NCBI GenBank assembly: GCA_964560005.1
Contig: CAZLKB010000001.1
Coordinates: 221,216-285,215, forward strand
Origin: an uncultured Gammaproteobacteria bacterium
GTDB lineage: Bacteria; Patescibacteriota; Patescibacteriia; Patescibacteriales; GWC2-42-12
Reading direction: 5' to 3'
DNA: 64,000 nt
Shown here: piece by piece, positions 7,469 to 63,480 of the stretch
Layout: each line of letters opens with the position of its first letter
Numbering within the stretch: position 1 is the first letter of the stretch
Made by a program: the position numbers and the translations under genes
Notes under the pieces: generated by a model
What the model was told of the DNA's origin: nothing
Seen by the model: the letters and a program-made list of their open reading frames with translations, nothing else
The model's database searches: none

Positions 7469-9337
7469 TTATTCCGCGAAATCAAACGGGGAAATCAGTT
7501 GGCCCTTGGCTTCTTGGGCATCCAGCAAACGGCGGCGCTGTTCATGTAAATGGTCAAACAAATTGCGCGGCACGCCGGTTTCCTTATTATAAACCGCTTC
7601 CACGCGCTTTAACCGATCTAGCAGGGCGGCCGTGCGCAGAGAAAAGCCTTTAATATATTCATCTCTTGAGTAATCGCGGGAAAATATTTGCCAAAACAGG
7701 TCACGCAAATCATTATATTTCGGAATAAAGCCGATCGGCGTTTCTAAGGCGGTATAATCGCCGTGAATTCTTCCTTCCATCCATAAGAGCCAGACCTTTT
7801 TATCTACTTTTTGATTTAAAAATCGGCCGTTGTCTTTTAAAAAGTAGTTAGTGGCGAAAATTTTCGGCTGTTTAGCCAGTTTGTCGCCGAATTTTAAATG
7901 GTTTTCCAAATAAGTTCCCAGCGGCACAACCATAAAATCAATATTAGCCATGGGATTATGAGCCATCTCTCCCACCGATCCGACTACCGCGCCGGTCGTG
8001 ACTGATTCTAAAATCGCTCCGATAAAAACTCCGTGCGCCCAAGAGAGCGCTTCAACTACCGGTGGAGAAACATCATAATCCCGGCCGCCGTAAATTATGC
8101 CGGACAATGGCACGCCTTCGGGGTTATCTAAATTAGGATCAACATTGGCTAAATCCTTAATCCGAATAGTATAGCGGGCATTAACATGCGCCGGTTTTAT
8201 TTCTACCCCGTTAGCATCGGTTTGGCCTAGCCGCCATTCGCCGGTGTAATTAACCCCGGACTCGGGTAAATTTCGCCCCATACCCAGCCAGAAAGGCGCG
8301 TCATGGTTGACCAAAATATTGGAAAAGATCACTTCTCTCGGCGTAGTCAGGGTCTGGTATATGAGCGGGTCATCGATTGGATTCACATCCTCAATAATGC
8401 CGAAGATGCCCTGCTCCACATTAGCCGCGTAGGCCAGCCCATCAGCGCCGATTTTCAAATAAGCGATATCGTCGCCGATAATGGTTTGCCCCGGGATCAT
8501 GGCGGTTGAAGTTTTTCCGCAGGCCGAGGGGAAAGCGCCGGTAAAATAAGTGGTGCGATTTTTACCTTCAGTTTTAACGCCCATAACGAACATATGTTCG
8601 CACAGCCAGTCTTCGGCGTGTGATTTTTTTATAGCCAGCCGCAGAGCCAATTTTTTTAAACCTAGCGAGTTGCCGGCGTATTGGGTATTAACGGAAAAAA
8701 CGCGATTAGCTTCCAGATCTATATAGATTCGTTTGGCCGCGGTATTAATTGAGGTTTTGTTTTCGCTTAGCTCTCCGGCCGAATGGATAAAGTGGAAAAA
8801 ATTATTTGCCAGTTTGGCTGACTTAAATTGTTGATAACCATTGCGATAAAGAATAGTTTCAGAGTGAATAACATAGGCTGAATCGGAGAGCTGCATGGCG
8901 CCGATGGCGAAACGGGAATTAACCGGACCAAGCGTAAAAAAAGCCACGAACATTTCCTTGCCCGCCATAATATTTTTAAGTTTTTCCCTGATTTCTAATA
9001 AGCATTCTTCTCGCTCGCCGGTATTAATATGCTGACCCAGGCGCTGACCTTTGGGCAGTAAGACTTTGGTTACCGCTTTGTCGCGTCCCTGGTCGGCTGG
9101 ACCGTCAAAATGATAAGTGTGACCCGGTGTGGCCAGCGGCGTTTCTTCGCCGTTTAATAAAGACTGCTTTTTAACATAGGCTAGGTCATCAGCCGAACCG
9201 TCTATGACAGTAATTTTCGCCGGCCGACAGAGTACGCTATACTCGGCCACAATATCTAAGACAGCCTGGTTATTAAGAGCGGTTAATTTGGCCAGGTTGG
9301 TTTCGTCAATTAAATTGCTGGGGATGTTGTTTTTCAT
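7469..9337 (-). CDS. pckG: phosphoenolpyruvate carboxykinase (GTP)
   Basis: The GAFPSACGKTS kinase-1a motif and overall length match GTP-PEPCK. ATG at 9337 is preferred because the track start at 9379 is TTG and lies inside an inverted-repeat element. Confidence 0.9.
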   Translation of the reverse strand: MKNNIPSNLIDETNLAKLTALNNQAVLDIVAEYSVLCRPAKITVIDGSADDLAYVKKQSLLNGEETPLATPGHTYHFDGPADQGRDKAVTKVLLPKGQRLGQHINTGEREECLLEIREKLKNIMAGKEMFVAFFTLGPVNSRFAIGAMQLSDSAYVIHSETILYRNGYQQFKSAKLANNFFHFIHSAGELSENKTSINTAAKRIYIDLEANRVFSVNTQYAGNSLGLKKLALRLAIKKSHAEDWLCEHMFVMGVKTEGKNRTTYFTGAFPSACGKTSTAMIPGQTIIGDDIAYLKIGADGLAYAANVEQGIFGIIEDVNPIDDPLIYQTLTTPREVIFSNILVNHDAPFWLGMGRNLPESGVNYTGEWRLGQTDANGVEIKPAHVNARYTIRIKDLANVDPNLDNPEGVPLSGIIYGGRDYDVSPPVVEALSWAHGVFIGAILESVTTGAVVGSVGEMAHNPMANIDFMVVPLGTYLENHLKFGDKLAKQPKIFATNYFLKDNGRFLNQKVDKKVWLLWMEGRIHGDYTALETPIGFIPKYNDLRDLFWQIFSRDYSRDEYIKGFSLRTAALLDRLKRVEAVYNKETGVPRNLFDHLHEQRRRLLDAQEAKGQLISPFDFAE

Positions 9338-9530: not shown

Positions 9531-10901
9531 CTAATCAAGCGCGCGGATATTTTTTAATGGTTGCAATTTATTGATTTCCAGACAAGCGGAATAGATATTT
9601 TCTATTAATTTAGGGATGTTTTTTACGGCCACGGAAGAAAAAGCCAGGCGCAATAGGTTACCGGGCAGGGCGATAACGCCGGTATCGTATTTTTCTAAAA
9701 GTTTTCGCCGTACTTTTTCCGCGTCTAAACCGTGAGCCAACTGTAAACACATAAAATAGCCGGAGTTAAACGGCAAGGCGGTGAAGGCCGGGGTGTATTT
9801 TGGATCGGTTAAGGCTTTTTTAACGGCTAAATAGCGGGATTTAAGTAAATCAAATTTTTTTTGTTTTTCTTCCGCGTAGCCGGGCGAATTCAGGCAGGCT
9901 AAGATTAAGGACTGTGATAAATGCGACACGTTGGAGATTTGGCCGCGGATAATGCCGGCGGTTTTTGCTTCCAGGGCCTGATATAGTTCATTGTTTCCGC
10001 CTCTCACGCCATAAGTCAAAAAGCCAACCCTTAATCCCCAGGCATATTCTTCCTTGCTGACACCATCAATTTTAACGGCTAAGACGCGTTCATCTAAATT
10101 CGCCAGTTTACTGAAGAGTGATTCTCTAATAATACCCTCTTCATAAACCAAGCCGAAATAGGCGTCATCCAACAAAACTACTAATTCATCTCCGGCTTTG
10201 GCGCGTTCGCCGATAACCGCGACGATTTGCTCTACCTCCGTAGTTGTCGGAGTATAACCGGATGGATTATTGGGAAAATTCAGTAAAATTATTTTTTTAT
10301 TCGCCCCGTTATCGCGGTGGTTTGCCTTTTCGGCCAGCTTGGCTTTAAAGCTCTCTATATCAAACCTTTGATTATTAAAAGTATTAAACGGGTCCAGTAT
10401 CCCGCCGGAGCCGAGTTCAAAAATAAGGCGATAATTACCCCAGAGTTTATCGGCAATAATTATTTTGTCGCCAGGGTTAACGAATAGGGTTGCGCACACG
10501 GTCAAGCCATGGGTTAGGGCATTGGTAACGACCGGCAGGCTCAACGGCGAATTGAGTGAAGGGTTTTTTAGCTTAATTAGTTCTTGCCATTTTTTACGCA
10601 GTTCGGGTTTACCGTAGCTGGGCGCGTAAGGAAAAATTTCCTTGGGTTCTAATTTAATTAAATCAGCCAAGCCAGCAAGCCTGACTGGCGAACCATTGTC
10701 TTCGGTGGCTATGCCAATGGTGGCGTTTATGGTTTTGCCCTTGGCTTCGGCCGATTGTCCTAAAATGCCGGTTTTAGGAAAATAAAAAGCCAGTCCGCTC
10801 TCGGATAAGAGGCGAAGAATAACCGAGTTATTTTGGCCAATGATGGCGTTTAATTCTGTAGCCAAAGGGTTCAATTGTTGTGGTCGATGATTAAGTGTCA
10901 T
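9531..10901 (-). CDS. PLP-dependent aminotransferase, class I/II
   Basis: 456 aa with LNFPNNPSGYTPT and the DDAYFGLVYE pattern of class I/II aminotransferases. Confidence 0.8.
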   Translation of the reverse strand: MTLNHRPQQLNPLATELNAIIGQNNSVILRLLSESGLAFYFPKTGILGQSAEAKGKTINATIGIATEDNGSPVRLAGLADLIKLEPKEIFPYAPSYGKPELRKKWQELIKLKNPSLNSPLSLPVVTNALTHGLTVCATLFVNPGDKIIIADKLWGNYRLIFELGSGGILDPFNTFNNQRFDIESFKAKLAEKANHRDNGANKKIILLNFPNNPSGYTPTTTEVEQIVAVIGERAKAGDELVVLLDDAYFGLVYEEGIIRESLFSKLANLDERVLAVKIDGVSKEEYAWGLRVGFLTYGVRGGNNELYQALEAKTAGIIRGQISNVSHLSQSLILACLNSPGYAEEKQKKFDLLKSRYLAVKKALTDPKYTPAFTALPFNSGYFMCLQLAHGLDAEKVRRKLLEKYDTGVIALPGNLLRLAFSSVAVKNIPKLIENIYSACLEINKLQPLKNIRALD

Positions 10902-57973: not shown

Positions 57974-59491
57974 TTATCTTGCGTATTCGGTCACTCGCAT
58001 TTCTCTAATGACATTAACCTTGATTTCGCCCGGGTATTTTAATTCTTGTTCAATTTTTTTAGCGATTTCCTTAGCCACATTGATCGCCGCCAGATCGTCA
58101 AGCTTGTCCGGGGTAACGAAGACTCTGACTTCCCGGCCGGCCTGAATGGCGTAGGCTTTTTCAATGCCATCAAACGAAGTGGCGATTTTTTCCAGTTCTT
58201 CCAGGCGCTGGATATAGTTTTCGAAAGTGTCGCGGCGCGCGCCCGGACGGGCGGCCGAGATGGCGTCGGCCACTTTAACGATAACGGAAATCAAACCGTT
58301 AGGCCGGTCATCGTGGTGAGTTAAGATCGGGGCGATCAGCTCTTCGGTTAAGCCGAATTTCTTAGCGATATTGGCGCCGATTTCCGGATGAGTGCCTTGG
58401 ACTTCGTGGTCAACCGCCTTGCCGATATCGTGAAGCAGGCCGCCTTTCTTAGCCAAGGTGACATCGGTGCCCAACTCTTCCGCGATTAGGGCGGACAGAT
58501 GAGCCACTTCAACCGAATGCTTAAGGCAGTTTTGGCCGTAGCTGGTTCTGTATTTAAGGCGTCCGAGAATTTGCACTAATTTAGTATCCAGGCCGGCTAC
58601 TCCGACTTCGTAGATCGCTTCCTCGCCGGCCTTTTTAATATCCAAGGCCAATTCTTCCTTGGCCTGCTTGATGGCGTCTTCAATCTTGGTCGGGTGGATG
58701 CGGCCGTCTTTAATTAAATAATCAAGAGTTCTCTTGGCCACATGCCGCCTGATCGGCGAGAAGCCGGAAATAGTGATGGCATTAGGCGTATCATCAACGA
58801 TGATTTCCACGCCGGTCAGTTGTTCAATTACTTTAATATTTCTGCCTTCGCGGCCGATAATTCTTCCCTTCATCTCATCATTGGGCAGGTCCACGGTGGT
58901 AGTGGTTATTTCCGTGGCGAAAGTTGAGGCCAGGCGCTGCATGGCTCCGGCCATTAAATCGCGTGCTTTTTCGTCCAGGCTGTCCGAGGATTCTTTTTCC
59001 AATTTATTAATCCTGATAACCAAATCATCCTTAATTTCCCTTTCAATGTTTTTAAATAAAACCTGCTTGGCTTCTTCTTTTGACAGGCCGGCGATTTTTT
59101 CCAGCTTAGCCAGCTGTTCATCGTGGATTTTTTTTATTTTTTCCTTGACTTCCTCTACTTTATTGACTTTGTCGTATAAGAGCTGCTGCTTATCTTGCAA
59201 TTCCAAGAGTTTTTGGGAAAAGACGGTCTCTCTTTTCTCCAGCCTGATTTGCAGATTGTTGACTTCTTGGCGCCTTTTATCGTCCTCTCTTTTAGCCTCG
59301 TCAATGATTTTTAAGGCTTTATCCTGGGCGGCCAGGAGCAATTCTTTTTGCTTAGCCTTAGTCTCGGTTAAGATTTTTTCGGCGCGCGATTCAGCGCTTT
59401 GAACCATGGCCAGGCCTCTTTTTTTTCTGGTATAGTAGCCGACAAAAAAACCGCCGATTACGGCTAGAATTCCAATAATGATAATATCCAT
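57974..59491 (-). CDS. rny: ribonuclease Y
   Basis: N-terminal TM helix, coiled coil, a KH domain (GRIIGREGRNIK) and an HD domain (LLHDIGKA). Confidence 0.9.
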   Translation of the reverse strand: MDIIIIGILAVIGGFFVGYYTRKKRGLAMVQSAESRAEKILTETKAKQKELLLAAQDKALKIIDEAKREDDKRRQEVNNLQIRLEKRETVFSQKLLELQDKQQLLYDKVNKVEEVKEKIKKIHDEQLAKLEKIAGLSKEEAKQVLFKNIEREIKDDLVIRINKLEKESSDSLDEKARDLMAGAMQRLASTFATEITTTTVDLPNDEMKGRIIGREGRNIKVIEQLTGVEIIVDDTPNAITISGFSPIRRHVAKRTLDYLIKDGRIHPTKIEDAIKQAKEELALDIKKAGEEAIYEVGVAGLDTKLVQILGRLKYRTSYGQNCLKHSVEVAHLSALIAEELGTDVTLAKKGGLLHDIGKAVDHEVQGTHPEIGANIAKKFGLTEELIAPILTHHDDRPNGLISVIVKVADAISAARPGARRDTFENYIQRLEELEKIATSFDGIEKAYAIQAGREVRVFVTPDKLDDLAAINVAKEIAKKIEQELKYPGEIKVNVIREMRVTEYAR

Positions 59492-59932
59492 AGATTGGTA
59501 TTCCAGGGTCGGTGGTCAATATTATTCGGATGTGCCGCCCCGCATGTTGCGGGGTAGTGCGGCTCGCGAAGCGATAACAAAAACAAAACCAAATTTAATT
59601 TAGTTTGGGCAAATATTTTGAAGTGGTTTCAAGATTTTAGAGAAAATTTTAATTGCCACAAAATTGCTAATCTAAAGATAAAATTTGTTCTTGTCGCGTC
59701 TCGCTTTAATCTGATCGACCGCTGGAATTTATAATTAATTATTTACAATATTTACCTTAACATAAGGACGAGAGTTTGACAAGGGCGGAATATATTGACA
59801 GCAACCGGCATGAGGTGTTAAGTTTGGGTCATCACCAGTTCTTTTAAATAGCGGTTCGGCGGGTGGCTAACTGCCTTGAGCTTCTTTCATAGGGAGTTTA
59901 GGGCAGTTAACCAATCAATCTTTATTAAAATT

Positions 59933-60424
59933 ATGCCGACCGCCAATTATATTATCAGTTCGTTTTATAACATCAGCCCCATCAATACGGTTGAGGAGGG
60001 TATTAGTCGGGGGCGCTTCCAGGACCAAGACCCCTTTATTGACAATCAAACAGTGCCGCTCTGGCCAGCCGCGGGAGAAAAAACCGTCCATGTTGTTTGT
60101 TTTAATAAGGAAACCGGCAACTGCGAATACCCCGAGCTTTTATGGCAGATTAGAATGCGGCCTTGCCGCGATGCTCCGAACTATTTCTTAGGTTTAATGG
60201 CACAATGGCCGGAGGACCAGATGGCTTCAACGCAGTTAAGCAACACGCATATTGTCGCGGCCGAACCGGATGGGCTCGCCGCTTCCTTTTATAACAGTGA
60301 AGGCGATAACTGCTATCTATATGCTAACCGTCGCGGGTTGGTTCGCGGGCTCTTCCTTATGGATAAGGAAGGAGCCAAATGGCCAGAAAACTTTGGCTTT
60401 CTGGCGGAGGACCTGGCGCCCTAA
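59933..60424 (+). CDS. hypothetical protein (163 aa, GC-rich)
   Basis: ATG at 59933 is preferred because the track start at 59876 is TTG. No motif recognised. The leader carries a compact box A/box B-like string at 59874-59896. Confidence 0.45.
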   Translation: MPTANYIISSFYNISPINTVEEGISRGRFQDQDPFIDNQTVPLWPAAGEKTVHVVCFNKETGNCEYPELLWQIRMRPCRDAPNYFLGLMAQWPEDQMASTQLSNTHIVAAEPDGLAASFYNSEGDNCYLYANRRGLVRGLFLMDKEGAKWPENFGFLAEDLAP

Positions 60425-60528
60425 GCGCCTTAATTAGACTATTGAACCCTTGGTACTTATAGTATTTCGGGTTCTTTTTTTACGCGGATATTTTAGGTAT
60501 GATCAGCAGGCATTTTGAATAACAAAAA

Positions 60529-60823
60529 CCCCCGCTGGGCTATAGGTCGGAGGCAACGGAAGTTATACGAGCCAAGAAACAATAGTTAGAGGAGAGAGTT
60601 TTTTGAGAGCCTACCTCAAAAATAGCTTTAAGTCATTTTCAAGGATTTTTCCGGCGAAAAATTAGAAAATTGAGAAGTAATAGTGTTACTATTACGACGA
60701 AATTTTATAATTTTTTTAGCCGAAAAAGACTGAAAATGAGCCATAGATATTTTTGAGGTAGGCTCGAACGCTCATATTGTAGCCTGACTTGATTCTGTTG
60801 CGCGATCTATAGCCCGACGGGGG
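60529..60823 (-). ncRNA. about 295-nt nested palindrome, candidate hairpin RNA or MITE-like element
   Basis: Outer arms cccccgctgggctatag 60529-45 / ctatagcccgacggggg 60807-23 (15 of 17 bp). Inner arms gagcctacctcaaaaata 60607-24 / tatttttgaggtaggctc 60748-65 are a perfect 18 bp. On the minus strand it is preceded by TGCTATAAT and followed by TTTTTG. Confidence 0.45.
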
Positions 60824-60851
60824 CTTATTAATATTATAGCACTTTTATTTT

Positions 60852-60919
60852 CTCTATGAATCCACAATCCTTTAGAATTATGAACTCAAGTGAGAGGGTG
60901 AACGCCGCATCGTTCACCC
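60852..60919 (-). repeat. inter-ORF bipartite structured element, copy 1
   Basis: Minus sense: GGGTGAACGATGCGGCGTTCACCC TCTCACTTGAGTTCATAAT tctaaagga TTGTGGATTCATAGAG. Confidence 0.75.
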
Positions 60920-60962
60920 TATTTTAATAAAGTTTGGCATCATTGCGGAATGCCTTAGTAAA

Positions 60963-61187
60963 CTATCCGGCCGATTGCCGGTAGCTTTGGAATGCCCGGC
61001 ACACCCGGATTATCAGGTCCACCCCCCACCAGACCAAGGTTTCACGCCAGTCGGCGTGAGAATAGTCCAGCTGCCAGTCATTACCGCCAGCCGACACGCT
61101 GGCCAGCAGACTGGCTGGCTTGGTTCCTGGGGGCGGAACCAGGAAGACTCCGTCGAAAGATCCGCCGATACACTTTATTAATACCAT
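60963..61187 (-). CDS. small hypothetical protein, MxLIKCIGG family (74 aa)
   Basis: MVLIKCIGGSFDGV... is a paralog of 62734-63087. It starts 27 nt after element copy 2. Confidence 0.55.
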   Translation of the reverse strand: MVLIKCIGGSFDGVFLVPPPGTKPASLLASVSAGGNDWQLDYSHADWRETLVWWGVDLIIRVCRAFQSYRQSAG

Positions 61188-61214
61188 AACTTTTCGTATT
61201 TGGTTTTTTTCTAA

Positions 61215-61307
61215 CTCTATGAACCCACAATTTTTGCCTCTTCGGCCAAGAAGAGTTAAATTACGGACTCAAGTGAGGGGAGAAGCAACCGGTTGATCGC
61301 TCCTCCC
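61215..61307 (-). repeat. inter-ORF bipartite structured element, copy 2
   Basis: Minus sense: GGGAGGAGCGATCAACCGGTTGCTTCTCCCC TCACTTGAGTCCGTAAT [ctcttc-ttggcc-gaagag hairpin] TTGTGGGTTCATAGAG. Confidence 0.75.
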
Positions 61308-61326
61308 GGAAATGACCGACTGTCGG

Positions 61327-61791
61327 TTAGTCGGCGGCGGCCAGTTCGGCTTGGCGGGCGAGAACTGCTGCTCGCTCTATAGGCAGCCTATAAGGAGACA
61401 GGGCATTGAAAGCGACTTTAATCGCCTCAATCTCGGACTCCTTATAAAAGAGGCTATCTAAGTAGATTTCCTCGCCGTCGGCCGTTAAAAAGCCATGGCG
61501 AAGAAATTCGTTGTAAACTCCATGGGCCGACAATTTTGGCTTAATAGTGATGGTATAGACCCTGCGGCCTCCGAGGCTGGACCGCATCTCGCCGATGCGG
61601 TCGGCCAGGAAGACTATCAACGTTTCAAGTTGCGTCGCCATTTTTCTGGCCGCAACCTGTCGGCGCGCCTGTTCGGCGCGAATTTCTGGATCCTCCGGAG
61701 GCGCTACCGGGAGAGCCGACGTCTTTTTCCTGGCCAGGAGGCCAAGGATAAATAGGACTAATCCTCCGATTGCTTTGGTCATCTTTTTCAT
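61327..61791 (-). CDS. hypothetical N-terminally membrane-anchored protein (154 aa)
   Basis: MKKMTKAIGGLVLFILGLLA anchor. No motif recognised. Confidence 0.55.
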   Translation of the reverse strand: MKKMTKAIGGLVLFILGLLARKKTSALPVAPPEDPEIRAEQARRQVAARKMATQLETLIVFLADRIGEMRSSLGGRRVYTITIKPKLSAHGVYNEFLRHGFLTADGEEIYLDSLFYKESEIEAIKVAFNALSPYRLPIERAAVLARQAELAAAD

Positions 61792-61889
61792 GTTTTTTAT
61801 TTAAGCCTGTTTTTAGTCGGTTGACTCAACGACTTTTATTGTACTGGATTTCGGTTTGCTGCCAAGCTAACCTCTGTCCAGTTTTTTGA

Positions 61890-61978
61890 TCTCTATGAAT
61901 CCACGATTTCGCCTTTTGATTTTTTAGTATTGGCGGATAATTATGGACTCAATGAAGAGGAGATTTAAGGGCAATCTC
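61890..61978 (-). repeat. inter-ORF bipartite structured element, copy 3
   Basis: Minus sense: GGAGATTGCCCTTAAATCTCC TCTTCATTGAGTCCATAAT [variable 33 nt] TCGTGGATTCATAGAG. Confidence 0.75.
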
Positions 61979-62005
61979 CAAACCGAGAAATCAACAGGCA
62001 AAAGC

Positions 62006-62599
62006 CTAGTTAACTTTGACGAGATGCTCCCCGTTCTGTTCAAAAACAGGGACATACATCCCGTTGTCAGTGCCCATAAGGAAGGTTTTCCCTTCTTCCG
62101 GGCGAATCTTAAACCTTTCCCAGGGGATCACCTCAACCCCTTCTTTGCCTGTGTTGACGTATGTCACCTTAAAGGTCAGGAGCAAATTTGGAAGGTCCTG
62201 GGTTGAGCCCAGGGCTGTGCCAACCAGAGTATACTTCCGGCTGGTGTCGACCGATACTTCTCCGCTAATACCGGAGAATGAAACCGTTTTAACGATTTGT
62301 TTCCATTCGCCCTCCAGGCGTTTCCATTCCTTCTCGTCGGCGCGCCGTTCCGCGTGATTTAAATGGATTGCGTACAGATTGGGGCCTAGGACATACTCGG
62401 AAAAGTCCCGCTTGGGATAGATGATATACACGGCAGCCAGCTCCTGGGGCTTATCTACCTTGGCCATAAAGGCCTTACTGCTTCCCTCCTTCTGGAAGGT
62501 GATGAAGTTGCCCTGGACCGATACCGTGATTGGTGCCGCATTGACTGTTAAGGCCGTCAAAGCAAAGGTGGCCACGATTACAATAAGATTTTTTTTCAT
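62006..62599 (-). CDS. hypothetical secreted protein (197 aa)
   Basis: Signal-peptide-like MKKNLIVIVATFALTALTVNA|AP. No motif recognised. Confidence 0.6.
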   Translation of the reverse strand: MKKNLIVIVATFALTALTVNAAPITVSVQGNFITFQKEGSSKAFMAKVDKPQELAAVYIIYPKRDFSEYVLGPNLYAIHLNHAERRADEKEWKRLEGEWKQIVKTVSFSGISGEVSVDTSRKYTLVGTALGSTQDLPNLLLTFKVTYVNTGKEGVEVIPWERFKIRPEEGKTFLMGTDNGMYVPVFEQNGEHLVKVN

Positions 62600-62621
62600 T
62601 TTCTGTTTTTCTGTTTTTGTA

Positions 62622-62696
62622 TTTCTACCAATGAGCCTACAAGCAATCTTTCAGCTTATAAGTTCAAGAAGTAGGTGAACGCCGCATCGTTCACCT
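62622..62696 (-). repeat. inter-ORF bipartite structured element, degenerate copy
   Basis: Minus sense: AGGTGAACGATGCGGCGTTCACCT ACTTCTTGAACTTATAAG ctgaaagattgc TTGTAGGCTCATTGGTAGAA. Its hairpin core GTGAACGATGCGGCGTTCAC is identical to that of copy 1. Confidence 0.6.
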
Positions 62697-62733
62697 TATT
62701 GTTAAATTGTTTTGCGCTAAGCGGAGCGCAGTT

Positions 62734-63087
62734 CTATTCCGGCTGGACGATTTGTACCTCCAGCCCCTCCTCGTTGTCTCGGGCGACTTGGACATCATAC
62801 CTGGAGTCGACCAAGGCGTCTTCAAACGCCTGCAAGTCATTCTCCCGGGTGTATTCCACCCCGAGAAAGGACACCGAGCGGCCGTTTTTGACGGCGCGAT
62901 AAGCTCGCGCCATCAAATCCGCCCCGCCCCAGGCGATGGTTTCCTCCCGACTCGCCCGGGAGAAATCAATTTCCCAGCCCAACCCACTATTGACCAGGCT
63001 AAAAAGGTGGCCAATCGGTGGTTGCTGGAAGGAAGGTTCCCACACCTCGCCACTATTAGGTCCACCAATACATTTAATCAGTATCAT
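62734..63087 (-). CDS. small hypothetical protein, MxLIKCIGG family (117 aa)
   Basis: MILIKCIGGPNSGEVW... ATG at 63087 follows aaagaaaggcaaaa. The longer track ORF would read through the upstream element. Confidence 0.55.
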   Translation of the reverse strand: MILIKCIGGPNSGEVWEPSFQQPPIGHLFSLVNSGLGWEIDFSRASREETIAWGGADLMARAYRAVKNGRSVSFLGVEYTRENDLQAFEDALVDSRYDVQVARDNEEGLEVQIVQPE

Positions 63088-63114
63088 TTTTGCCTTTCTT
63101 TTATATTGTTTAAA

Positions 63115-63209
63115 CTCTATGAACCCACCATTTGCCCTCGCGCCAACGCGCGCGCAAATCATGAGTTCAATTGAGAGGGGGAAGCAATTGACCAACAATT
63201 GCCTCCCCC
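63115..63209 (-). repeat. inter-ORF bipartite structured element, copy 4
   Basis: Minus sense: GGGGGAGGCAATTGTTGGTCAATTGCTTCCCCC TCTCAATTGAACTCATGAT [GC hairpin] TGGTGGGTTCATAGAG. Confidence 0.75.
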
Positions 63210-63480
63210 GAAAACCTTTGTGACTATTTTCGTTCGTCACCCGAACGGGGAGTCAGCCGTCCCACGCCTCCAGTGTGTCGGTTTGAGATGTTAGTGAGGA
63301 ACCGTGCCCTGAGATACATAAACTCACTTTTTATCGGTAATATTCAGGGTTGGTGTTAAGCCAACCCAGCGGGCTTCATGTATAAAACCCGAATTTTTCC
63401 ATCGGAAGATTCATTGTCTTCCTTTCTTTTGCCGCCTCTCTCCGCGGCCGAGGGAAGCCTTGTTTTGGAAACGCGTAATG

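Follow-up and report, generated by a model that had tools for sequence, protein, structure and literature searches.

A two-hairpin RNA signal between the cistrons of hypervariable gene arrays in CPR bacteria

The minus-strand array and its repeated element

The window, a 64-kb stretch of DNA from a CPR bacterium (Patescibacteriota), carries towards its right edge an array of small ORFs on the minus strand, with copies of a repeated element between them. In the direction of transcription, the array enters the window with the 3′ part of a 239-aa ORF (63481–64000), which begins past the window edge and is preceded there by an element copy with a GCUCUUUAAAAAA box. It is followed by a 117-aa ORF of the MILIKCIGG family (62734–63087), which is a real gene with 16 homologues at 55–100% identity, and whose confidently predicted fold found no match in the PDB. 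Further downstream are a 197-aa ORF (62006–62599), with an N-terminus (MKKNLIVIVATFALTALTVNA) resembling a signal peptide, and a 154-aa ORF (61327–61791), with a hydrophobic stretch near its N-terminus (GGLVLFILGLLA) resembling a membrane anchor; neither matches a family. The final 74-aa ORF (60963–61187) is a truncated paralogue of the 117-aa ORF, and the two MxLIKCIGG ORFs, which an earlier reading made from the letters of the window (the sequence-only reading) had called paralogues, are 40% identical over 70 aa. A sigma-70-like TTGGCA-16-TACAAT on the minus strand between the third element copy and the 154-aa ORF (61838–61865) is among the few candidates for an internal promoter.

That reading had also described inter-ORF elements of one shared architecture, in which a hairpin (P1) is followed by two boxes, A and B, and our analysis bears this out. 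There are four strong copies and one degenerate copy on the minus strand of the window, and two more just past its edge. The box A pattern matches the minus strand four times (60877–60895, 61260–61278, 61940–61958 and 63158–63176) where 0.37 matches are expected, and none of 100 shuffles gave four or more. Box B (TTCATAGAG) lies at 60852, 61215, 61891 and 63115 on the same strand; two further exact matches in the window lie within ORFs or span a minus-strand ORF start, with no box A or P1 context. Repeat families D1–D3 also pick up both boxes. When a covariance model (R1) trained on copies from other loci was applied to the window, the four strong copies scored 47–56 bits (E 1e-9 to 2e-11) and the degenerate copy (62622–62698) 12.6 bits (E 0.14 in 8 kb), with strand and position as expected. 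Outside the array, the rest of the window has no copy; a compact look-alike proposed at 59874–59896 went undetected by the covariance model, even with filters off.

In RNA folds of all five copies, P1 is immediately followed by a long hairpin, P2, formed by box A with box B (z −3.2 to −9.9). Copy 5, directly after a 270-nt spacer, has a P1 with a 14-bp GC-rich stem of variable sequence (63177–63209) abutting a P2 (63115–63175) that pairs box A CUCAAUUGAACUCAU with box B GUGGGUUCAUAGAG below a long variable apical extension (R1 54.8 bits, E 2.9e-11); the fold of 63112–63209 reaches −58 kcal/mol (z −9.9). In the degenerate copy 4, P2 has drifted in sequence with its helix kept (−27 kcal/mol, z −5.0), and P1 (62673–62696) contains the core of copy 1's P1, as had been noted: the 22-nt hairpin GGTGAACGATGCGGCGTTCACC occurs letter for letter at 60897–60918 and 62674–62695 (D4/I6). 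The P1 of copy 3 (61959–61979), GGAGAUU...AAUCUCC followed by a U-rich tract, is the only one in the window to pass a simple terminator-scan rule, and its P2 (61891–61958; box A CUUCAUUGAGUCCAU, box B GUGGAUUCAUAGAG) has a 33-nt apical insert and scores 55.6 bits. Copy 2 combines a 13-bp P1 (61278–61307) with a P2 (61215–61277; box A CUCACUUGAGUCCGU, box B GUGGGUUCAUAGAG; 47.4 bits), together folding at −41 kcal/mol (z −4.4). Copy 1 has the shortest P2 (60851–60895; 55.6 bits) and a P1 (60896–60919; GGGUGAACGAUGCGGCGUUCACCC) that recurs in copy 4 and in the metagenome contig L015. From box B to the next start codon, the distances in the window are 24, 20, 96 and 24 nt.

Copy 1 is followed by a rod-shaped candidate ncRNA on the minus strand (60520–60826), first noticed as a 295-nt palindrome; the palindrome is real and consists of nested inverted repeats (I1–I3). 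The 3′ end of the candidate resembles a terminator. The candidate also contains a conserved CU-rich tract (AAAAACUCUCUCCUCUAA), and is conserved at four other loci (L024, L028, L048 and L010) after an element or a hammerhead ribozyme: an element precedes it in the window, L024 and L028, and a hammerhead in L010.

Box A and box B as the two strands of one RNA helix

P2 is built from box A as one strand and box B as the other, and P1 adjoins it. A stem between the outer ends of the boxes had already been proposed, correctly but with understatement, since both boxes pair over their full length. In an alignment of 62 copies from Patescibacteria/CPR genomes and metagenomes (a 40-copy alignment was also used), 95.1% of P2 cells are paired, compared with 33–47% when the partners are slid, and 12 of the 17 pairs show compensatory changes. 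None of 500 shuffles reached the observed scores. In the divergent copies of L048 and L014, UUGAGUUCAU/GUGGAUUCA are swapped for wholly different yet complementary strands.

P2 comprises at least 17 bp, is rich in G·U pairs (217 of 1035, 21%) and contains one bulged U, surrounded by a near-invariant core (UUGA/UCAUA); the helix ends read CUUUAU/AUAGAG in the alignments of both 40 and 62 copies. Its conserved bases are mostly paired and the helix is nearly regular. The direct repeat RTYCATRR, previously pointed out in both boxes, is present, but as a by-product of this G·U-rich helix. Of 61 copies, 55 have P1 (mean −15 kcal/mol) and 55 a gap of 0–1 nt between P1 and P2; the P1 tail has at least five U in 8 nt in 39 of 62. 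As sense RNA, the element folds at −16.8 kcal/mol versus −7.3 for the antisense, with the sense strand better in 61 of 62 copies, which marks it as an RNA-level element. Folds with DNA parameters are weak on either strand (−5.1 kcal/mol sense, −3.6 antisense).

A scan of the window against Rfam 15 at gathering thresholds returned four tRNAs and nothing else, and a scan of 60400–64000 at E ≤ 10 yielded only spurious matches, with pistol, hatchet, twister, twister-sister, RAGATH and 6S among the families covered. The hammerhead core CUGANGA/GAAA is absent from P2, and no Hammerhead match overlaps any element. The element is a real, previously undescribed two-hairpin RNA signal without a family in Rfam 15.

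Chromosomal context and turnover of the arrays

Searches beyond the window recovered exact matches in 12 CPR genomes and 28 metagenome contigs. Each genome has a single locus; in 13 genomes, the exact matches lie within one stretch of at most 8 kb, at odds with REP/BIME-type dispersal. The lineages sampled with the element include Saccharibacteria, Taylorbacteria, Liptonbacteria, Falkowbacteria and others, and the element appears to be confined to CPR bacteria and is tied to a trmB/DUF1874 array. The arrays hold 2–6 copies, always on the ORF strand, with start codons 20–100 nt past box B. Two arrays picked through their DUF1874 gene instead of the motif (L102 and L103) have no copy, implying that the element is dispensable. 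Among the array genes are GNAT, HTH plus Panacea, small ORFs of no recognised family, and DUF1874/AcrIII-1-like and Csx3 genes, two families that include cyclic-oligoadenylate ring nucleases. The arrays occupy a conserved chromosomal slot with an RNase Y gene as a recurrent neighbour, and no true copy was found among 2.9 million viral contigs; the phage or satellite origin that had been considered finds no support in this.

At ten loci, the array opens at a near-consensus sigma-70 promoter (TTGACA-17-TATACT) divergent from a TrmB-type regulator, and a DUF1874-like gene comes first in seven of these ten arrays. The internal genes have no promoters of their own, and the intergenic regions of the operon-like array are promoter-less: a sigma-70-like site lies downstream of 10 of 61 elements, in line with an 11% background, and overlaps the element in 5 of 61. 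TrmB is also the commonest family among the neighbours (10 of 145 ORFs), which would fit an element read as double-stranded DNA, as a promoter or operator, for example by that regulator. In copy 1 of the window, the TTCATA of box B is at the same time the −35 hexamer in a promoter (TTCATA-16-TATAAT) of the candidate ncRNA, and since three copies of the element overlap with a good promoter of this ncRNA, a DNA-level role is possible for some copies. As a general account, however, a double-stranded DNA site is highly improbable. A covarying insert lets the spacing between box A and box B range between 14 and 42 nt, whereas −35 and −10 elements of sigma-70 promoters stand 16–18 bp apart, and no conserved −10 element is seen; mismatches between the half-sites are exclusively wobble-compatible transitions, and the palindromes near the TrmB promoters (TTGTCA...TGACAA) are unrelated to the boxes.

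The arrays are hypervariable, their content being fully replaced between close relatives while the leader modules are retained. L014 and L037 share no array ORFs beside flanking RuvB and T2SSE proteins that are 92–95% identical; DNA homology restarts exactly at box A and extends to the first codons, and L014 carries a hybrid element. The 117-aa gene likewise occurs in different array positions and neighbourhoods between loci. Same-strand, fast-turnover arrays of small ORFs with one structured site per ORF, cassette-like gene content and a hairpin that is imperfect, has a bulged base and varies at its centre all recall integron attC sites, and the sequence-only reading had raised a cassette recombination site; alternatively, the element could be a homology patch driving cassette exchange. 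The turnover is indeed cassette-like, but a DNA-level site of either kind is very unlikely. The elements have no RYYYAAC/GTTRRRY cores. No integrase and no other tyrosine or serine recombinase is in the top 25 families by number of matches to the 145 neighbouring ORFs, none is seen among the precomputed Pfam hits of five 20-kb loci, and the single integrase-type match is one rve/IS30-like ORF in L037. While attC folds from the bottom strand, the wobble pairs of P2 are on the coding strand, the opposite of that rule, and the element is stable as RNA only; it is also tied to a leader reaching the start codon. The hybrid element of L014 needs no more than ordinary homologous recombination between the repeated leaders.

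The leader module and a proposed role in intercistronic RNA processing

In related arrays, the slot of P2 can be filled by a hammerhead. We detected 19 non-redundant canonical type III hammerheads on the array strand of 13 loci; a P1-like hairpin abuts 16 of them with a gap of 0–1 nt, and about 13 have GUUCUUU within ~10 nt downstream, followed by the same start-codon hairpins as those found with elements. In L037, the order is gene, hammerhead, gene, element, gene. The leader module of related arrays accordingly runs from P1 through a hammerhead or P2 and a boxA-like GUUCUUURAAA tract to a start-codon hairpin and the ORF, showing that P2 and the hammerhead are positionally equivalent. Downstream genes and ncRNAs are of the same types for both. 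In contrast to the hammerhead, P2 has neither the CUGAUGA/GAAA core nor a three-way junction, the Rfam Hammerhead models fail on it, and its cleavage is putative.

In its full-length form, seen in other genomes, P2 is followed by AGUUCUUURAAAA and a hairpin burying the start codon. Of 36 distinct instances of this tract, box C (consensus AnAGUUCUUU(G/A)AAAA), 32 sit −1 to +7 nt past box B; the two copies just past the window edge carry its core, GYUCUUU with an A-rich tail, as do 36 distinct copies elsewhere. All five copies inside the window have the minimal P1+P2 form, without box C and the start-codon hairpin, and may be functionally reduced.

Taking together the established structure, strand, distribution, position in promoter-less intergenic regions and positional equivalence with hammerheads, we favour the reading that the element is a cis-acting RNA processing or control module between the cistrons of a hypervariable accessory-gene array, to which we assign a probability of about one half. 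The signal most likely marks where a long transcript is cut or controlled. P1 would be the 3′-end, terminator-like hairpin of the upstream cistron and P2, 0–1 nt further on, would mark the 5′ limit of the leader of the next cistron; because a type III hammerhead fills the same slot in sister arrays, P2 may do the hammerhead's job of separating or punctuating cistrons at the P1/P2 junction. This would leave P1 at the 3′ end of the upstream mRNA and give the downstream mRNA a structured 5′ end. Here, cleavage, the factor acting in trans and any effect on expression are what we infer from context. Most likely, P2 would serve as substrate or guide for a ribonuclease of RNase III or RNase Y type, or for another conserved RNA-binding factor. 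Intercistronic processing hairpins have precedents in the RNase III sites of the T7 early region and in hairpin-guided RNase Y cleavage of the Staphylococcus aureus sae operon. The element resembles these as a long, irregular double-stranded hairpin between cistrons, with the RNase Y gene a recurrent neighbour of the arrays; it differs in a sequence conserved across CPR lineages, far beyond those examples, and in that its cleavage is presumed. RNase III as the sole reader would leave the strong sequence conservation of P2 without an obvious reason, and at ~18 bp the shortest P2 is barely long enough for RNase III. A leader with a cis-regulatory or RNA-processing role was among the proposals of the sequence-only reading and is supported by the covarying sense-only helix, the promoter-less intergenic slot and the hammerhead slot. 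The observation made in that reading is confirmed, and its interpretation partly supported.

The shared slot also admits a different reading, in which the hammerhead of the leader module is replaced by another self-cleaving ribozyme, of a new class, made up of P2 with or without its flanks. The exact match of position (P1 upstream, GUUCUUU box and start-codon hairpin downstream), the near-invariant core around the bulged U and the lack of a match to Rfam 15, pistol, hatchet, twister and twister-sister included, at E up to 10 all speak for it. Searches for motifs near hammerhead- and twister-associated genes reportedly led Weinberg et al. in 2015 to pistol, hatchet and twister-sister. The function of most RAGATH motifs is still unassigned (PMC11061315). 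Like RAGATH-type motifs, the element is a conserved structured RNA found through hammerhead-bearing arrays of small uncharacterised genes; unlike them, it has no RAGATH match in Rfam 15 at E up to 10 and seems restricted to a trmB/DUF1874 array of CPR bacteria. We nevertheless consider such a ribozyme rather unlikely: the conserved nucleotides are nearly all in standard or wobble pairs, which is unusual for a catalytic core, there is no evident pseudoknot or multi-helix junction, and divergent copies (L048) have replaced most of the helix sequence, which a catalytic core can rarely tolerate. Most RAGATH motifs are without demonstrated cleavage.

Box C raises the further question of processive antitermination of the rrn-leader or lambda nut type, in which RNA polymerase would acquire Nus factors or an N-like protein at P2 and the boxA-like tract, and could then read through P1 terminators and escape Rho in poorly translated leaders. 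The rrn leader has the same hairpin-then-boxA order, and two adjacent hairpins are reminiscent of HK022 put. In its full-length form, the element shares with such leaders a hairpin followed within a few nt by the boxA core GYUCUUU(A/G)A, and a 5′ leader location in transcription units holding terminator-like hairpins, here represented by P1 with its U-rich tail. Box C fits the core of the boxA consensus GYTCTTTAANA (PMC5725501; the comparison is with this consensus), some copies match the full consensus (GTTCTTTAAAAC, GCTCTTTAAAAAA and GTTCGTTAACAA), and boxA-dependent antitermination occurs beyond rRNA operons, in CRISPR arrays (PMC7665894). The tight placement of box C behind box B would also fit. 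This reading is nonetheless doubtful. None of the five copies inside the window has the box; it also follows hammerheads, indicating that it is independent of P2, and its sequence is similar to CUUYAUUGAG, the 5′ half of box A, so that the likeness to boxA may be coincidental. Nus complexes oppose Rho, not intrinsic terminators; and in contrast to rrn leaders and nut sites, the sequence of the element's hairpin is conserved in addition to boxA, and many copies occur per operon, each right after a terminator-like hairpin.

Conceivably, P2 with its P1 junction is either a self-cleaving ribozyme of a class not recognised before or a site dedicated to a sequence-specific RNA endonuclease, interchangeable with hammerheads, by which CPR bacteria would cut hypervariable arrays containing ring-nuclease-family genes into individually controlled mRNAs. 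As the element sequences are short, self-cleavage could be assayed in vitro within days.

CPR/Patescibacteria probably account for a large part of bacterial diversity, yet few structured RNAs have been described from them and little is known of their gene regulation. Our analysis adds a strongly covarying RNA motif that is missing from Rfam and common to several CPR lineages, as part of a modular leader that punctuates a fast-evolving chromosomal array linked to a TrmB regulator and ring-nuclease-family genes. If P2 is a processing site or a ribozyme, it would offer a direct handle on the long-standing question of what hammerheads are for in bacterial gene arrays, and would reveal the way in which symbionts with reduced genomes express their accessory genes and exchange them.

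Structure and copies of the inter-ORF element

A sequence-only reading had proposed that small minus-strand ORFs at 60852-63209 are separated by elements made of a GC-rich hairpin, a box A, a variable hairpin and a box B. Searching the window with the box A pattern returned four matches, all on the minus strand (0.37 expected) and each paired with a box B TTCATAGAG. Both boxes also emerged as four-copy families in repeat finder output, which contained, in addition, a 22-nt hairpin identical between copy 1 and the degenerate copy 4 (62622-62698). When folded as single sequences, all five copies form two adjacent hairpins, with z-scores of -3.2 to -9.9. Two extra exact matches to TTCATAGAG (4079 and 42624) were discarded, as they lie inside an ORF or across the start of a minus-strand ORF and lack a box A or P1 context, and a suggested look-alike at 59874-59896 was not detected by R1, our covariance model of the element. 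Logan contig L001, the reverse complement of the window end, adds ~1.85 kb and carries two more copies upstream (836-908 and 1508-1579), so that the array, whose start lies beyond the sequence covered, holds at least seven. The GC content of the array (~50% versus ~45% in its neighbourhood) is unremarkable.

In an alignment of 40 distinct copies, box A (CUUUA-U-UUGAGUUCAU) pairs with box B (GUGGAUUCAUAGAG) to form a single helix, P2, in which one U is bulged; the variable hairpin previously described between the boxes is the apical extension of this helix. In this structure 95% of cells are paired, compared with 34-47% when the partners are slid. The R1 model recovered further, more divergent copies; across its 62 matches, in an alignment (A2) that was fitted to R1 and is thus biased towards the structure, 12 of 17 pairs show compensatory double changes, and no shuffle reached the observed covariation. 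Single-sequence folds, which are independent of the model, and hand-checked divergent copies agree with the helix. Loci L048 and L014 retain the CUUUA...UAGAG base of the helix but have an entirely different inner sequence. Over the copies as a whole, about one helix pair in five is G.U. The variable hairpin P1 (mean -15 kcal/mol) precedes the helix with a gap of 0-1 nt in 55 of 61 copies, and about two thirds of the copies have a U-rich P1 tail.

Folding as RNA gave -16.8 kcal/mol for the sense strand versus -7.3 kcal/mol for the antisense strand, and folds with DNA parameters were weak on either strand. Since the sense-strand RNA fold is far better and both DNA folds are weak, these data speak for an RNA that is transcribed in the same direction as the ORFs. 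Readings at the DNA level, with the element as an attC-like site, a promoter or an operator, failed their specific tests. Box A or box B as a -35 or -10 hexamer has the wrong spacing and consensus, and promoter-like sites follow elements at the background rate (10 of 61; background 11%). Palindromes next to the array promoter, considered as TrmB operators, are unrelated to the boxes, and an Frpo-like single-stranded-DNA promoter was rejected, since it is the sense strand that forms the stable hairpin and this strand cannot serve as the template for sense RNA. The gap between box B and the start codon can be as short as 20-24 nt, leaving no room for a promoter, so the elements must lie inside transcripts. 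The analysis establishes the element as a sense-strand, RNA-level, two-hairpin structure inside predicted polycistronic array transcripts.

A modular leader shared with hammerhead ribozymes

Copies in other genomes carry a third box, box C (consensus AnAGUUCUUU(G/A)AAAA), downstream of box B. Of 36 distinct instances, 32 have box C -1 to +7 nt after box B, and in three a hairpin insert of 42 nt comes between the two. Box C agrees with the core of the boxA consensus published as GYTCTTTAANA (PMC5725501). Another hairpin frequently follows box C, with the start codon within its 3' arm (GUAUUCAUAGCG...CGCUAUGAAUAC); such a buried start codon is found at many array genes (L014 1655-1712, L016, L023, L038, L040 and others), and its location inside a conserved hairpin arm means that unrelated ORFs share the N-terminus MNTK. 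Neither box C nor the start-codon hairpin is present at the five in-window copies; the two copies past the window edge carry box C as GUUCUUUAAAAG and GCUCUUUAAAAAA. Complementarity of box B (AUUCAUAG) to CUAUGAAU would also permit an alternative pairing. In L029 (1960-2040) and L032 (1185-1268), another conserved leader, GAGCUGUUUGGCGAAG...UUUGCCGYUUUCAGUGAAAAAAGCGGGAGGAG, sits between an element and the start codon and is possibly a separate cis-regulatory RNA.

Canonical hammerhead cores were noticed in L102, an array picked via its DUF1874 gene. Type III hammerheads were sought with a structural regular expression; the 26 detected all share the strand of the array and reduce to 19 non-redundant hammerheads in 13 loci once duplicate contigs are removed. 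Full canonical cores occur in Patescibacteria (CPR) arrays in L004, L006, L009, L010, L011, L013, L029, L037, L039, L042, L043 (for example at 8315-8362) and L102. The calls are based on the regular expression together with sub-threshold Rfam scores, as the Rfam-detected hammerheads score 23-41 bits against a Hammerhead_3 gathering score of 48.5, and standard annotation would therefore miss them. Within L102, two hammerheads ~300 nt apart (10403-10775) enclose a non-coding segment and are each followed by the same AGAAUGCUUU flank, an arrangement that could release a small RNA, perhaps circularised.

Hammerheads and elements occupy the same slot. In 16 of the 19 cases the hammerhead directly follows a P1-like hairpin (gap 0-1 nt), and in ~13 of 19 a GUUCUUU tract lies at most ~10 nt after it, followed by the same start-codon hairpins as with the element. 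The order in L037 is gene, hammerhead, gene, element, gene, and in L043 a hammerhead or an element occupies most of the gaps between genes that span 130 nt or more. A candidate ncRNA lies 3' of copy 1 in the window and 3' of a hammerhead in L010. Given this shared context of P1-like hairpin, GUUCUUU tract, start-codon hairpins and ncRNA, the modular leader has one slot that either P2 or the hammerhead can fill interchangeably, and the element is positionally equivalent to a self-cleaving ribozyme.

We infer that array transcripts would be punctuated at the P1/P2 junction, so that the upstream mRNA would have P1 as its cap and the downstream one would start with a structured leader. A ribonuclease, or some other conserved factor, would act there by recognising the nearly invariant UUGA/UCAUA sequence that surrounds the bulged U. 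Self-cleavage by P2 itself is a live, if rather unlikely, alternative. For the full module, Nus-type antitermination via box C is a plausible reading; it cannot account for the in-window copies, and box C occurs beside hammerheads too. Overall we judge it, likewise, rather unlikely. Known RNAs with which the element was compared include the rrn boxA of Firmicutes, HK022 put, RNase Y guide hairpins and T7 RNase III sites. As for what kind of thing the element is, RAGATH motifs were reportedly introduced by Weinberg et al. in 2015. The element is of this already known kind, a conserved structured RNA in hammerhead-associated arrays (PMC11061315), and it is unlikely to be categorically new in the sense of a new ribozyme or a dedicated RNase site.

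The ncRNA next to copy 1 (60520-60826, minus strand), picked out earlier as a 295-nt palindromic element, is a conserved rod-shaped candidate with relatives in L024, L028, L048 and L010, and is not in Rfam. The closing stem (GGCUAUAGGUCG/CGGCCUGUAGCC) and the U-tail terminator are common to the relatives, as is an invariant tract rich in C and U, AAAAACUCUCUCCUCUAAAC, which lies partly in an unpaired apical region of the RNAalifold structure (four sequences, 51 predicted pairs, 10 covarying). The window ncRNA has its own promoter, TTCATA-16-TATAAT, and could be an anti-Shine-Dalgarno-type sRNA. Its 15-nt core has 35 matches in viral contigs, about the chance expectation for a 15-mer by our own estimate.

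Distribution and novelty

Public collections of GTDB genomes, metagenome contigs and viral contigs were searched with the exact bipartite pattern, which matched 28 metagenome contigs and 13 GTDB genomes. Of these genomes, twelve belong to Patescibacteria (Saccharibacteria, Taylorbacteria, Liptonbacteria, Falkowbacteria, Parcubacteria, Paceibacterota and one unclassified MAG), and the remaining 'Gammaproteobacteria' match (L005) reaches only 19 bits and is probably due to chance. The strict pattern had no match in viral contigs, and none of 16 loose-pattern viral matches was confirmed by the covariance model; the best of these (L065) is without a P1 hairpin and appears to span a reverse-strand ORF start.

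Rfam scans at the gathering threshold (window and 38 loci) and by E-value (region and 8 loci) assigned no family to the element, yielding only sub-threshold Hammerhead_3 matches away from it. The element matches no Rfam 15 model, and literature searches for the sequence of the motif, for RNA motifs of CPR bacteria and for integrons in CPR returned nothing relevant. The T4SS-linked arrays of secreted proteins in Saccharibacteria (PMC7427843) differ from the element arrays. As far as we can tell, the motif, the modular leader and the CPR-specific trmB/DUF1874 array are undescribed.

Gene content and setting of the arrays

The ORFs following elements are small, mostly mutually unrelated and without family matches, and the window ORFs had no hits in Pfam, PHROGs or PADLOC. 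The 117-aa MILIKCIGG ORF (62734-63087, minus strand) is a real gene with 16 homologues, all of 117 aa, which lie at varied positions and in varied neighbourhoods within same-strand arrays of 5-15 small ORFs with interspersed elements; the 74-aa paralogue is a truncated version of it. Modelled with AlphaFold at very high confidence (pLDDT 91.6), the 117-aa protein had no Foldseek match in the PDB, and the predicted fold of this family may be undescribed. Between a 239-aa ORF and copy 5, 270 nt of the window (63210-63480, minus strand) contain no convincing ORF; two short pieces resemble L038 4725-4826 (85-96% over 24-41 nt).

Array contents turn over. Two genomes (L014 and L037) with flanking proteins 92-95% identical have no array ORFs in common, and DNA homology between them (L014 1539-1709, L037 8087-8256) restarts at box A and stops a few codons into the ORF. 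One L014 element looks as if it had been assembled from parts of three L037 elements, which suggests that the repeated leaders recombine.

Among 145 neighbouring ORFs, the commonest Pfam family is TrmB (10 members), and the 25 commonest families include no recombinases. The TrmB gene is divergent from the array in ten loci, and the shared intergenic region contains a near-consensus promoter, TTGACA-17-(TGc)TATACT. This conserved array head, with a divergent TrmB gene and a strong sigma-70 promoter, is seen in L043 (2937-4264) and also in L004, L029, L037, L038, L039, L045 and L102. The RNase Y gene rny lies near the array in the window (57974-59491), L007, L012, L039, L043, L102 and a JGI contig, at a distance of 0.5-6 kb in at least six independent loci from Saccharibacteria and other CPR lineages. 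This proximity points to a conserved chromosomal slot of trmB, array and rny-clpP-tig-nusA. By our estimate, which assumes a single-copy rny, it is far above chance; a functional connection or a conserved hotspot for insertion may lie behind it. Proximity to tRNA genes (five loci) is at about chance level and was dropped as an array feature.

Other array contents include a GNAT protein, an HTH-plus-Panacea protein and a HATPase-plus-DUF4325 protein. In seven loci, the first array gene encodes a conserved ~113-aa protein that is DUF1874/STIV_B116-like, an assignment based on weak direct Pfam and PDB matches together with precomputed PF08960 annotation on most of 181 homologues. Viral members of DUF1874 are AcrIII-1 ring nucleases (10.1101/778746, PMC8284326), and Csx3, another ring-nuclease family (PMC7371418), is encoded in one array (L048 5495-5839, E 1e-17). 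Together, the DUF1874-like gene at the array head and Csx3 suggest a role for the arrays in cyclic-oligoadenylate signalling or counter-defence.
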